NCBI GenBank assembly: GCA_004297215.1
Contig: SCUM01000001.1
Coordinates: 353,181 to 417,180 of the forward strand
DNA length: 64,000 nucleotides
Origin: Patescibacteria group bacterium
GTDB taxonomy: Bacteria; Patescibacteriota; Patescibacteriia; UBA9934; GWF2-40-263
Reading direction: 5' to 3'
This document shows positions 43,408 to 46,609 of the stretch, piece after piece. Each line of letters opens with the position of its first letter. Positions within the stretch are counted from its first letter, which is position 1. The notes under the pieces were generated by a model. That model was not told the DNA's origin. It did no database searches and worked only from the letters and a program-made list of their open reading frames with translations. The position numbers and the translations under genes were made by a program.

Positions 43408-44997
43408 TTACAACAGCGCCGTCCCCGTCATCTCCGGCGGCTGCGGGATTCCCAAGACGGACAGGACCGTGGGCGCCACGTCGGCGAGCATGCCGACCGG
43501 CTGCATGAGCGAGAGGTCGCCATCGGGTACTTCCCCGGCAGGCGACGGCACCCCCTTGAACCGGTTCCCGACGATGACGAACGGCACGGGGTTCGTGGCA
43601 TGTTCCTTGTCGATCTCGCCGGTGCGCACGTTGAGCACCTCCTCGCCGTTGCCATGGTCGGCCGTGAGGAACAGGACGCCGTCCTTCTCAAGCACGGCGT
43701 CCACCACCTTCCCGAGGAACCCGTCCACCGCCTCCATCGCCTTCATGGTCGCCGGAAGGTTACCGGTATGCCCCACCATGTCGGGGTTGGCGTAATTCAT
43801 GATGATGAGGTCGTCCTCCCCTTTGCCGATCGCCTCGATCACGCGGTCGGTGAGGTCCGCGCCGCTCATCGCGGGCGCCTCGTCATAGGAGGCCACGCGG
43901 GGGCTTGGCACCAGGATGCGCCGCTCGCCCTTGAACGGCTCCTCTCGCGTGCCATTCACGAAGAAGGTGACGTGCGCGTATTTCTCGGTCTCGGCGATGT
44001 GCAGCTGCGTGAGTCCGGCATCGGAGACGGTCTCGGCCAGCGTCTTGGAAACGGCGACCGGGGGATAGGCGACTTCCACCGGGAGTCCGGACTGGTATTC
44101 CACCATGGTGACGGGAAGCAGGTCCTTGATCGTGGCGCGCGGGAACCGCGTGAAGTCCGGGATGACGAACGCCTTCACGAGCTCGCGCATGCGGTCCGGG
44201 CGGAAGTTGAAGAAGATGACCGCGTCGCCGTCCTTGACCGTCGCGACCGGCTTGTCCGCGTCCGTCATCACGGTCGGGACGAATTGCTCGTCATACACCT
44301 CGCGCGCGTAGCTCTCCCTGATGGCCATGATCGGGTCGCTCGCGGTCTCGCCGACCCCCGCCGCCATCGCGTCATACGCCTTCTGGACCCGATCCCATCG
44401 GTTGTCCCGGTCCATGGAATAATAGCGGCCGCTCATGCTCGCGAGCTTCCCGACCTTCAGCTTCTTCATCGTCGCGAGGAGCTTCCCGACGAAGTCGATG
44501 CCGGCGTTGTAGAGCGTGTCGCGCCCGTCGAGGATAGCGTGCACGAACACCTTCTCGGCTTTCTGCTTCTTGCACAGCTCAAGCAGCGCGAAGCAATGCT
44601 CATCCATGGAATGCACGCGCCCGGCGCTCACGAGCCCGATGAGATGGATCGCGCTCCCGTTCTTCTTCGCATGCCCGATCGCCTTCCGGAACGCCTCGTT
44701 CTCGAAAAAATCGCCGCTGACGATGTCGCGGTTGATGCGCGGGAAGGTCTGGTAGTACACGCGCCCGGCGCCGATGGCGAGATGCCCCACCTCCGAGTTG
44801 CCCATTTCGCCCCACGAGAGCCCCACCTCCTCGCCGGAAGCGCGCAGCGTCATGGTGGGATAGTCGCGGATGAGCGACCGGAACACCGGCATCTTGGCAC
44901 GCGTGACCGCATTCCCCGGCCCATCCGGCGCCACGCCAAACCCATCAAGCACCATGAGCACCGCGGGTTTGGGGCGTTTATTCGAGGCATCTGCCAT
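43408..44997 (-). CDS. gpmI: 2,3-BPG-independent phosphoglycerate mutase
   Basis: LDGFG, GNSEVGH, ETEKYAHVT, DMVGHTG and TADHGN motifs. Confidence 0.97.
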   Translation of the reverse strand: MADASNKRPKPAVLMVLDGFGVAPDGPGNAVTRAKMPVFRSLIRDYPTMTLRASGEEVGLSWGEMGNSEVGHLAIGAGRVYYQTFPRINRDIVSGDFFENEAFRKAIGHAKKNGSAIHLIGLVSAGRVHSMDEHCFALLELCKKQKAEKVFVHAILDGRDTLYNAGIDFVGKLLATMKKLKVGKLASMSGRYYSMDRDNRWDRVQKAYDAMAAGVGETASDPIMAIRESYAREVYDEQFVPTVMTDADKPVATVKDGDAVIFFNFRPDRMRELVKAFVIPDFTRFPRATIKDLLPVTMVEYQSGLPVEVAYPPVAVSKTLAETVSDAGLTQLHIAETEKYAHVTFFVNGTREEPFKGERRILVPSPRVASYDEAPAMSGADLTDRVIEAIGKGEDDLIIMNYANPDMVGHTGNLPATMKAMEAVDGFLGKVVDAVLEKDGVLFLTADHGNGEEVLNVRTGEIDKEHATNPVPFVIVGNRFKGVPSPAGEVPDGDLSLMQPVGMLADVAPTVLSVLGIPQPPEMTGTALL

Positions 44998-45066
44998 AGG
45001 TGGGGACATTGTAGCAGAAACCAAACCCCGTCCTCTTAGAGAGGCGGGGTGGTTGGTCCCGAGCCA

Positions 45067-45143
45067 TGGTGGAGCCGACGGGATTCGAACCCGTAATGCC
45101 AGGTGTCAACCCTAGTGAGGTTGCCAATTACCTCCACGGCCCC
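45067..45143 (-). tRNA. Atypical tRNA: Ala-type acceptor stem (G3:U70, A73) with anticodon loop GUUGACA (reads UGA; GAC in a shifted register)
   Basis: 77-nt cloverleaf GGGGCCG/CGGCTCC-ACCA, D stem GAGG/CCTC, anticodon stem CTAGG/CCTGG, T arm ACGGG-TTCGAAT-CCCGT. Confidence 0.8.
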
Positions 45144-45176
45144 GGCAACGTTTCCGTTGCGGCCCGGGATGTGAAC

Positions 45177-45211
45177 AAAAAAGACCCCCTCAAATTGAGA
45201 GGGTCGTTTTT
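45177..45211. terminator. Bidirectional intrinsic terminator between the promoter and the atypical tRNA
   Basis: AAAAAA-gaccccctcaa/ttgagagggtc-GTTTTT. Confidence 0.7.
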
Positions 45212-45252
45212 GTGACACCTGGATGGAGGAAATGCCTCACTAGGATATTAGG

Positions 45253-45281
45253 AGCGTATCAGTTTCCCGCGAAAATGTCAA
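45253..45281 (-). promoter_or_regulatory. Sigma70-like promoter
   Basis: TTGACA-17 nt-TACGCT on the minus strand. Confidence 0.65.
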
Positions 45282-45349
45282 TCTTCACCTGTGGATTGTT
45301 TAATCGCCGAACTCTTCTGAACAGCCATTGCCTGGCGGTCAGATTCATA

Positions 45350-46609
45350 TCAGGCCGTTTCCTCCTCAATCTCCATCAGCCGGTTGTATTTGGCGAGGCG
45401 TTCGGAACGCGATAACGAACCGGTCTTGATGTACTCGGCGTTCACGGCGACGGCAAGGTCCGCGATCGTCGTGTCTTCCGTTTCCCCTGAACGATGCGAC
45501 ACGGAAACCTTGTAGCCGCTCTTTTGCGCGAGGAGGATCGCATCGACGGCTTCGGACAATGATCCGATCTGGTTCACCTTGATGAGGATGGCGTTGGCGC
45601 ACCCATGCGCCACGCCCTGTTCCAGCCGCGCGACGTTGGTGACGAAGAAGTCGTCGCCTACGAGCGCGAGCTTCGCGCCCAGCGTCTCGGTGAGCTTTTC
45701 CCAGCCGTCCCAGTCGTCTTCCGCGAGGCCGTCCTCAAGCGAGACGATCGGATATCTCTTGGCGAGCGCCTTCCAATACGCGATCATCTGGTCGCTCGTG
45801 AACGTCTTCCCGTCGGCTTTCAACACGTAGCGCTTGCGCTTCGCGTCATAGAACTCGCTCGCGGCAGGGTCCATGGCGAGCATCACGTCCTTTCCCGCCT
45901 TGTACCCGGCGGCCGCGATCGCTTTCATGATGGCTTTGAGCGCATCCTCGTTTTTCTTGAACGGCACCGCATAGCCGCCCTCGTCGCCCTTCAGCGTGGA
46001 GTATCCCTGCTTCTTGAGAAGGTCGCCCAGCGCATGGAAGATCTCCGCGCCGCAACGGACGCGTTCGGCAAACTTCTTCTGCATCGGCGCCACCATGAAC
46101 TCCTGGAAATCGATCGCCCAGCCGGCGTGCACGCCGCCGTTCAGGATGTTCATCGTTGGGGTGGGGAGTCGGTAGGGGGTAGGGGGTAGGTGGTAGGCGC
46201 GGCGGAGGTAGGCGTAGAGCGGCATCTTCTTCGCGTTCGCGGCGGCGTGCGCCACGGCGAGCGACACGCCGAGGATGGCGTTGGCCCCGAGCTTTCCCTT
46301 GTTGAGCGTCCCGTCGAGCGCGCACATCCGCGCGTCCACGTCGCGCTGCTTCGTGGCGTCCATGCCGATCACGGCCTTGGCAATCGGGCCGTTCACGTTC
46401 TTCACGGCCTTGAGGACGCCTTTGCCGAAGTAGCGCAACGGATCGCCGTCGCGAAGCTCGAGCGCCTCGTGGCTCCCGGTGGATGCGCCGCTCGGGACGG
46501 AAGCCGTTCCAACCGCGCCGCCCTCAAGCATCACCGTCGCCTGGACCGTCGGGTTGCCTCGGCTGTCGAGGATCTCATGCGCGTGGACGGAGGAGATTTT
46601 GGTGGACAT
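45350..46609 (-). CDS. eno: Enolase
   Basis: [27 protein letters not shown] and KYNRL motifs. Confidence 0.98.

Follow-up and report, generated by a model that had tools for sequence, protein, structure and literature searches.

Among type VIII toxin–antitoxin pairs, SdsR/RyeA works through direct antisense pairing. In the P4 CI and P1 C4 systems a processed, structured RNA pairs in separate blocks with the leader of its own transcript, and T-box leaders are marked by a specifier stem, a T-box bulge and an antiterminator that pairs with the NCCA end of a tRNA. Here we describe a cassette on the minus strand of a 64,000-nt stretch of a Patescibacteria genome (contig SCUM01000001.1 of assembly GCA_004297215.1; the whole stretch is called the window), in which a promoter, an antisense leader, a terminator, an alanine-identity tRNA and a closing terminator follow one another over about 300 nt of inserted DNA. 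It belongs to a real, conserved tRNA/anti-tRNA system that is apparently undescribed: in a literature coverage lying mostly outside subscription journals, we found no description of the family, of any small RNA whose natural role is to neutralise a tRNA, or of a tRNA as the toxin of an addiction module. No mention of Patescibacteria was found in PMC13092985, and PMC11915505 is also among the comparison literature.

The family resembles above all a type VIII pair, with the layout of type III. Formal typing would place it in type VIII, but neither partner resembles those described. As in CreTA (PMC11610964, PMC8501985), both partners are RNA and translation is the likely target; however, CreT sequesters a host tRNA and CreA needs Cas proteins, whereas the toxin candidate of the window is itself a tRNA with an aminoacylation identity, and there is no homology. 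The CreTA antitoxin guides neighbouring Cas effectors in the manner of a CRISPR RNA; here no cas family was found among 170 ORFs flanking other copies, and the antisense pairs with the tRNA and not with its promoter. Two marks of type VIII are present, namely a cognate RNA, the putative antitoxin, predicted to act by base pairing (seen at the sequence level as covariation, wobble bias and cognate specificity) and the lack of any protein component. With type III toxIN (PMC8860590) the cassette shares the succession of promoter, (putative) antitoxin RNA, short terminator and (putative) toxin gene, and in toxIN transcription shutoff liberates the toxin; the shared layout holds in the taxonomic order of the window genome, and relatives have other layouts. 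The toxIN toxin is an endoribonuclease with a tandem-repeat pseudoknot antitoxin, whereas here the toxin candidate is RNA and neutralisation would be by base pairing.

In this order only, the structured RNA is complementary in blocks to the leader of its own transcript, as in P4 CI/seqA–seqC and P1/P7 C4/a1b1 (PMC4825925, PMC2864571). It differs in being a true cloverleaf with alanine identity and CCA, in lacking prophage context, regulated downstream genes and an antiterminator, and in that the antisense is often a separate convergent gene. The Rfam C4 family models did not match the cassette, and neither a second target site nor regulated downstream phage genes were found by the genome-wide target scan, among the housekeeping neighbours or in viral scans. 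As in tRNAProX of Streptomyces and Kitasatospora (PMC11415595), acceptor and anticodon identities differ, and A15 with a Y48-type partner and A34 anticodons occur; here, however, the identity is Ala and not Pro, there is no dedicated synthetase, and the tRNA is multi-copy, dispersed and accompanied by a cognate antisense RNA. Like a T-box (RF00230), the leader pairs with a tRNA anticodon loop 5′ of a terminator, but ~20 nt would pair, two stems would be unfolded, the partner is the leader's own downstream tRNA, and specifier stem, T-box bulge and antiterminator are missing. Neither an RF00230 match nor antiterminator pairing with the NCCA end was found. The TLD-only mini-tmRNA of phage DS6A (PMC4131195) is similarly short, with an Ala-type acceptor and T arm and inhibitory potential; our tRNA differs in its D stem and anticodon-like loop, an intact host tmRNA and an antisense partner. 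Membership of the tmRNA family was rejected, since tag reading frame and stemless D loop are absent and the score is 35.7 bits against a cut-off of 47, and a two-piece or sole tmRNA is ruled out because the genome has a normal ssrA and smpB at other loci.

The cassette between eno and gpmI

Table 1. Features of the cassette and its flanks, in window positions.
Feature	Position	Strand	Description and basis
CCACA-containing motif	45289..45297	−	~8 nt 5′ of the −35 box; sequence
Predicted sigma70-type promoter	45253..45281	−	TTGACA −35 at 45281–45276; sequence and conservation in homologues
Extended −10	45261–45253	−	TG-A-TACGCT at 45258–45253 after a 17-nt spacer
Predicted transcription start	near 45246	−	Predicted
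Predicted ~73-nt antisense RNA (leader and terminator), putative antitoxin	45174..45246	−	Sequence and family architecture
Block b′	45235..45244	−	Exact 10-nt complement of tRNA nt 22–31
Block a′	45224..45229	−	Exact 6-nt complement of tRNA nt 8–13; optional
Block c′	45213..45222	−	Exact 10-nt complement of tRNA nt 34–43
Intrinsic terminator	45174..45212	−	5′ A-tract, 3′ U-tract; abuts c′; core called 45205–45183
5′ arm of stem enclosing the tRNA in the read-through precursor	45161..45168	−	Predicted fold
GNRA-tetraloop hairpin in 5′ spacer	45145..45160	−	Not conserved across the family
tRNA of alanine identity, putative toxin	45067..45143	−	G1-C72, G2-C71, G3-U70, A73, encoded CCA
Odd anticodon loop of the tRNA	45111–45103	−	Ser (UGA, nt 34–36) or Val (GAC, nt 35–37) by register
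3′ arm of stem enclosing the tRNA	45058..45065	−	Predicted fold
Terminator-like hairpin closing the cassette	45018..45057	−	z −5.0
eno (enolase), upstream flank, outside the module	45350..46609	−	ORF
gpmI-like phosphoglycerate mutase ORF, downstream flank, outside the module	43408..45024	−	Named from its own sequence, no library match

The preliminary description had placed a minus-strand promoter (TTGACA-17-TACGCT) ahead of three leader blocks that are exact complements of tRNA segments in permuted order, followed by a terminator and then the tRNA. The blocks and their positions were confirmed. When the upstream 147 nt were shuffled 10,000 times with dinucleotides kept, two perfect 10-mers never occurred, and a single one did in 75 shuffles. 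The promoter sequence is present and its motifs, TTGAC and a TG..T..AAT box, are conserved in homologues, but a consensus promoter scanner did not call it (0 found). The scanner missed it because the −10 box is weak; the assignment rests on conservation. Block b′ starts 35–38 nt after the start of the −35 box in 91/101 copies, and CCACA or ACACA lies ≤30 nt 5′ of that box in 52/101; in the window this motif resembles a DnaA box.

Within the leader, the pairing of b′ reaches 12 bp when the first transcribed nucleotides are included, a′ doubles as the closing part of the leader's own hairpin, and the 3′ end of c′ is predicted to stay single-stranded, as a toehold for the anticodon loop. The fold of the tRNA is a cloverleaf; G3-U70, A73 and an encoded CCA are present, yet the loop carries G32 and C37. 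A stem encloses 4/4 family tRNAs as compared to 0/46 ordinary tRNAs of the same genome. An Rfam scan of the window returned nothing at gathering score. No ORF or repeat array lies within the window cassette, no conserved ORF was found inside or beside it when the 170 ORFs flanking other copies were scanned, and these flanking ORFs include only housekeeping genes, with no shared partner gene. The gpmI-like ORF has a −10-like motif of its own at 45016–45008.

Elsewhere in the genome, the RNase P RNA gene (G000:C1:584565-585050) shows at its ends the CCCGGG...CCCGGGAC stem and the type of terminator found around the cassette tRNAs, whereas none of the 46 ordinary tRNAs is bounded in this way. The stem may be a processing signal common to both, or no more than an extended P1.

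The eno–gpmI gap is ≤200 nt in 20/29 relatives, leaving no room for a cassette. As the two genes are near-adjacent in these relatives, the cassette is an insert. The window genome (0.98 Mb) has 46 ordinary tRNAs, AlaRS, RNase P RNA, tmRNA and SmpB, so the family tRNAs are supernumerary.

Complementarity of the leader with its own tRNA

Co-variation of leader and tRNA in homologous loci had been set beforehand as the check on the pairing, and the changes proved compensatory in over 100 copies. Before counting, 9/128 pattern matches were dropped as non-family, and 13 copies of non-standard length and 3 unanchored copies were left out of the pairing count; all family counts given here include kin, which are not independent. 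Blocks b′ and c′ formed on average 18.2/20 Watson–Crick pairs with the cognate tRNA, compared to 13.4 with other tRNAs (106 standard-length copies). The cognate leader was best in 93/106 with ties allowed and strictly best in 66, and b′ preceded c′ in 104/106. Columns 27, 29, 31, 36, 41 and 43 each show all four Watson–Crick pair types. Core positions that are not Watson–Crick comprise 112 G-U, 23 A-C and 46 others, and this preference for G-U over A-C argues for pairing between transcripts of the promoter strand, that is, at the RNA level. Block a′, which had been counted among the pairing blocks, is an exact 6-nt match in the window but is optional in the family. It was fully paired in 57/100 copies, as compared to a mean of 18 and a maximum of 31 for shuffled linkers, and is missing from short-linker copies. 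The block is dispensable.

The free leader is predicted to fold as a mirror hairpin in which the partners of nt 33 and 35–37 are open (unpaired probabilities 0.92, 0.84 and 0.68 for the partners of nt 35–37). Strand exchange into two ~10-bp helices was predicted to be favourable in 96/101 copies, with a median of −8.9 kcal/mol (a rough value from which the linker penalty is excluded), and required both b′ and c′. We infer that the permuted order follows from geometry, with b′ and c′ taking the halves of nt 22–44 that flank the U-turn, and that the 6–21-nt linker spans the short distance separating nt 22 from nt 44 in a tRNA.

Pairing is specific among paralogues: the cognate leader outdid all paralogue leaders in 49/50 within-genome comparisons. 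There was no extra orthogonality within genomes, the median being −15.3 kcal/mol for same-genome paralogues and −14.2 kcal/mol between genomes, and hence no sign of selection for it. Genome-wide, the best two-block site is each copy's own leader, and the scan found no other chromosomal target better than it. Two copies pair in other ways: in L413 the pairing is one contiguous 15-bp block, and the antisense of L485 (downstream of its tRNA, G579:C11) has a second block complementary to a paralogous tRNA, L484, elsewhere in the genome.

Identity, distribution and decay of the family

All 185 distinct leader-bearing tRNAs have G3-U70, the Ala determinant (PMC11415595), and 184/185 have A73, counts in which G3-U70 is search-biased as the loci were largely found with G3-U70-bearing queries. 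The remaining alanine-acceptor marks (G1-C72, G2-C71 and CCA) are also present, with the same bias in the 185-copy set. Two exceptions with A3-U70, L427 and L437, keep a complementary antisense.

The anticodon can be read in two registers. At nt 35–37 the loop has Y32 in 184/185, U33 in 164/185 and R37 in 182/185, and the triplets are GAC (96), GUC (30), GCC (22), AAC (10) and GGU (8), with Ala in 4/185. Given G35, G36 is followed by C in 1/12 compared to 148/155 otherwise. At nt 34–36, the canonical position by distance from the T arm, the triplets are UGA (94), UGU (24) and UGC (20), with Ala in 24/185 and R37 in only 6; this register would make those 24 copies harmless Ala tRNAs (UGC/CGC). 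The window copy is non-Ala in either register. Some Ala-triplet copies (L008, L020, L194, L471 and L544) have kept a strong antisense. In this order, the codon may be read from nt 35–37 of the 9-nt loop.

Pattern scans of the phylum and of the class of G327, with patterns that impose G3-U70, gave 55 shorter (67–71 nt) Ala-acceptor relatives in other Patescibacteria. In five, an Ala acceptor is combined with an entirely canonical loop and an Arg or Ile anticodon, and each of the five has a cognate antisense. Among 20 predicted 7-nt loops, 14 favour the nt 34–36 register, with a pyrimidine or G at 37, and the triplet is central in only 5. Avoidance of Ala is not seen in these relatives (5/55 triplets; antisense kept in 2/5 compared to 39/49, p 0.08), and U8/A14-type features are missing. 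The short relatives may not decode at all.

A covariance model of the family matched in about 90/151 genomes of the order, with 1–9 matches each and 10 in G044; at least one weak match is an ordinary tRNA-Ala. The other 61/151 are without a cassette, some of them scored as 100% complete. Antisense-bearing copies also occur in at least 7 genomes from other families of the class. Pattern-scan matches fell in 80 titled records (28 Uhrbacteria, 21 other Patescibacteria, 23 'uncultured Gammaproteobacteria', 6 'bacterium' and 2 others, titles as deposited). Outside the class, the phylum-level R1 scan gave ordinary tRNA-Ala only. Some insertion sites (uvrB–uvrA, leuS–ugd, dnaE and polA) are common across genera, the leuS–ugd site holding an intact tRNA in both G001 and G036. 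No phage origin was seen, as viral pattern scans gave 0, 6 and 0 matches, the 6 being ordinary tRNA-Ala(UGC) without a leader. Dispersed copies at unrelated sites, without a partner gene, fit a selfish pattern. At one copy, L176, the eno match (G006:C8:22544-23797) has three internal stops (1 TGA, 2 TAA) and is a broken or interrupted gene.

Decay is lopsided: the tRNA goes first, and intact copies without a leader were essentially unseen in the order. In 23 cassettes the tRNA is lost or broken and the leader kept. The window genome has 4 intact cassettes, 3 in which the middle of the tRNA is replaced by a GIY-YIG/hairpin element, 1 in which it is replaced by higB–higA, and 2 reduced to promoter and terminator. 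In 40 other genomes, 26 leader matches had no listed tRNA; on inspection 10 tRNAs were deleted, 9 broken, 5 D-arm-degenerate and 2 intact. The sole leaderless tRNA seen in the order, L244, is itself damaged in its acceptor and lies behind a truncated promoter, and 13/13 family members checked among weak model matches keep at least c′.

The replaced copies have features of their own. The same tRNA segment, from after nt 13 to the T stem, is replaced by a hairpin element at G000:C1:83050-83660, C1:800698-800822 and C2:92210-92720, two of which carry a 98-aa GIY-YIG gene. This repetition suggests homing or gene conversion into the tRNA family. GIY-YIG hairpin elements may prefer tRNA genes generally, in which case the count of tRNAs broken first would be inflated. 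At G000:C1:385150-385960 a higB–higA type II toxin–antitoxin operon with its own promoter takes the tRNA's place between an intact leader–terminator and the trailer, and at G000:C2:44930-44990 and C1:626254-626320 the cassette promoter and terminator remain, without leader or tRNA, 5′ of protein genes.

Variants were also seen. In the D-stem-less L188, L404, L408, L419, L413 and L427 the acceptor and T arm are intact and the leaders still match; a GGYAYGGUU motif common to three of them argues for a subfamily and not random decay. In L416, L423, L424, L425 and L407, from four genomes, the family tRNA is intact apart from a short palindromic insert in its T loop or T arm. The odd loop shape recurs (GUUGGCG) in an Ala-acceptor tRNA of a Bacteroidetes-titled record (L084:2350-2580) and of two metagenome contigs (L320 and L349). 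There the tRNA lies after a terminator and another, variable tRNA with a seeming mismatch between body and anticodon; an IS1595-like transposase (named from sequence) flanks the pair on one side and an HTH gene on the other. These three loci gave no antisense, and BLAST of the L084 tRNA against phage gave no match; they are possibly a separate mobile miscoding-tRNA system.

A proposed mechanism and its alternatives

It is fairly probable, from comparison of sequences, that the locus is a toxin–antitoxin of some form, and we lean, with less assurance, towards an all-RNA one in which a miscoding Ala-tRNA is the putative toxin and the antisense RNA the putative antitoxin. We favour a toxin because Ala identity and a non-Ala anticodon disagree, decay is one-sided, the pairs are private and the layout equals toxI–terminator–toxN. 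The promoter would yield an excess of the leader RNA and, by rare read-through of the terminator as in that layout, a tRNA precursor; RNase P and 3′ trimming, aided by the enclosing stem, would free the tRNA, and AlaRS would charge it via G3-U70. A kissing contact between the unpaired ends of the leader and the anticodon loop would be followed by invasion of the anticodon and D stems on both strands, and the two ~10-bp helices would leave only the acceptor/T half folded, so that the tRNA could not decode. If the cassette were lost or transcription stopped, the antisense RNA would decay first and the tRNA would be freed. The free window tRNA would insert Ala at Val GUC/GUU (nt 35–37) or Ser UCA/UCG (nt 34–36), or slip frame. 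Each copy would thereby be addictive, and possibly an abortive-infection switch.

What would be different if the tRNA did harm without decoding? The pair would still be a toxin–antitoxin, with an Ala-charged mimic that titrates SmpB and blocks tmRNA rescue, or ties up AlaRS, EF-Tu or RNase P, and a loop signature that serves only fast kissing. We consider this unlikely. The best Rfam match of the window tRNA is, below cut-off, tmRNA, and TLD-only RNA strongly inhibits tmRNA, perhaps through SmpB titration (PMC4131195), but the tmRNA D-loop and GAC connector (six host tmRNAs) are not kept in the family. Similarly, L188, L404, L408 and L419 keep acceptor, T arm and antisense without a D stem, whereas most copies keep the D stem and anticodon arm, where SmpB binds tmRNA. 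The ambiguous reading register would suit a non-decoding toxin; the variation of the loop triplet between constant flanks, and the five relatives with textbook Arg/Ile loops, would not.

It is similarly improbable that the tRNA-like RNA is non-toxic, useful to the host and not addictive, its activity set by the antisense, either as a regulated mistranslator in stress or phage defence or as a non-decoding alanine carrier. Natural dual-identity tRNAs do exist, as tRNAProX shows (PMC11415595), and insertion sites that recur across genera indicate that copies persist for long. However, a host benefit fits poorly with the 61 genomes that do without a cassette, including 100%-complete ones, with the presence of as many as 10 mutually orthogonal copies in a genome of ~1 Mb, and with the order of decay, in which the tRNA goes before the leader and virtually no intact leaderless copy was seen. 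There is also no partner gene, and RqcH was not found; a role as RqcH substrate was ruled out, NFACT_N not being found in the window genome.

The preliminary description had proposed either an anti-tRNA small RNA, as in an all-RNA toxin–antitoxin, or a tRNA-sensing attenuator. Covariation, wobble bias, toehold, paralogue-specific pairing, lopsided decay and independent antisense genes all support the first, and the attenuator found no support. In a feedback attenuator of the P4 CI/P1 C4 type, the mature tRNA-like RNA would bind the nascent leader and promote termination, holding its own level constant. The layout of promoter, target sites, terminator and processed structured RNA is indeed that of seqA/CI (PMC4825925), and c′ abuts the terminator stem, but no cognate antiterminator was found in 101 copies, foreign leaders pairing with the 5′ arm of a terminator as well as its own leader does (0.506). 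The terminator is predicted to form with the leader free (median pair probability 0.96), and no second target or regulated gene was found. The short relatives argue more decisively against attenuation. A cognate antisense (≥13/18 Watson–Crick pairs, ≤300 nt from the tRNA) was present in 41/55, compared to 4.4% of 2,966 non-cognate tests, with none above threshold within that distance in the other 14. It was a convergent gene downstream of the tRNA in 36 relatives; two others had it downstream on the tRNA strand, two had it divergent and one had it upstream, so that it is a separate downstream or divergent gene in 40/41; a promoter-like motif precedes it in 33/41, and it is also convergent in G188. 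An antisense downstream on the opposite strand with its own promoter cannot attenuate the tRNA and must therefore act in trans. We regard the attenuator as quite improbable.

Inverted repeats at the DNA level, belonging to a small mobile element or a duplication scar and without RNA function, would suit a dispersed insert and a core TGTCA/TGACA that also ends GIY-YIG-associated hairpins, but are very hard to reconcile with the G-U to A-C ratio of 112:23 on the promoter strand, a block that begins at the predicted transcription start, covarying cloverleaf stems, and a match that in convergent relatives is a direct repeat behind an opposite-strand promoter.

The toxin–antitoxin reading can be widened to a phylum-wide, selfish, protein-free addiction or abortive-infection family, in which a miscoding Ala tRNA would be the toxin and an anti-tRNA small RNA would invade its anticodon and D stems, with four or more gene layouts, as many as ten orthogonal pairs in one genome and a codon perhaps read from nt 35–37 of the 9-nt loop in this order; on this wider claim we are evenly divided. 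The natural tRNA/anti-tRNA pairs, >200 in number and mutually orthogonal, offer a ready set of tools for turning off engineered tRNAs. If our reading is true, many 'tRNA-Ser/Ala/Pro' annotations in Patescibacteria are wrong, mistranslation is usable as a switchable toxin, and streamlined 1-Mb genomes carry RNA-only selfish elements.
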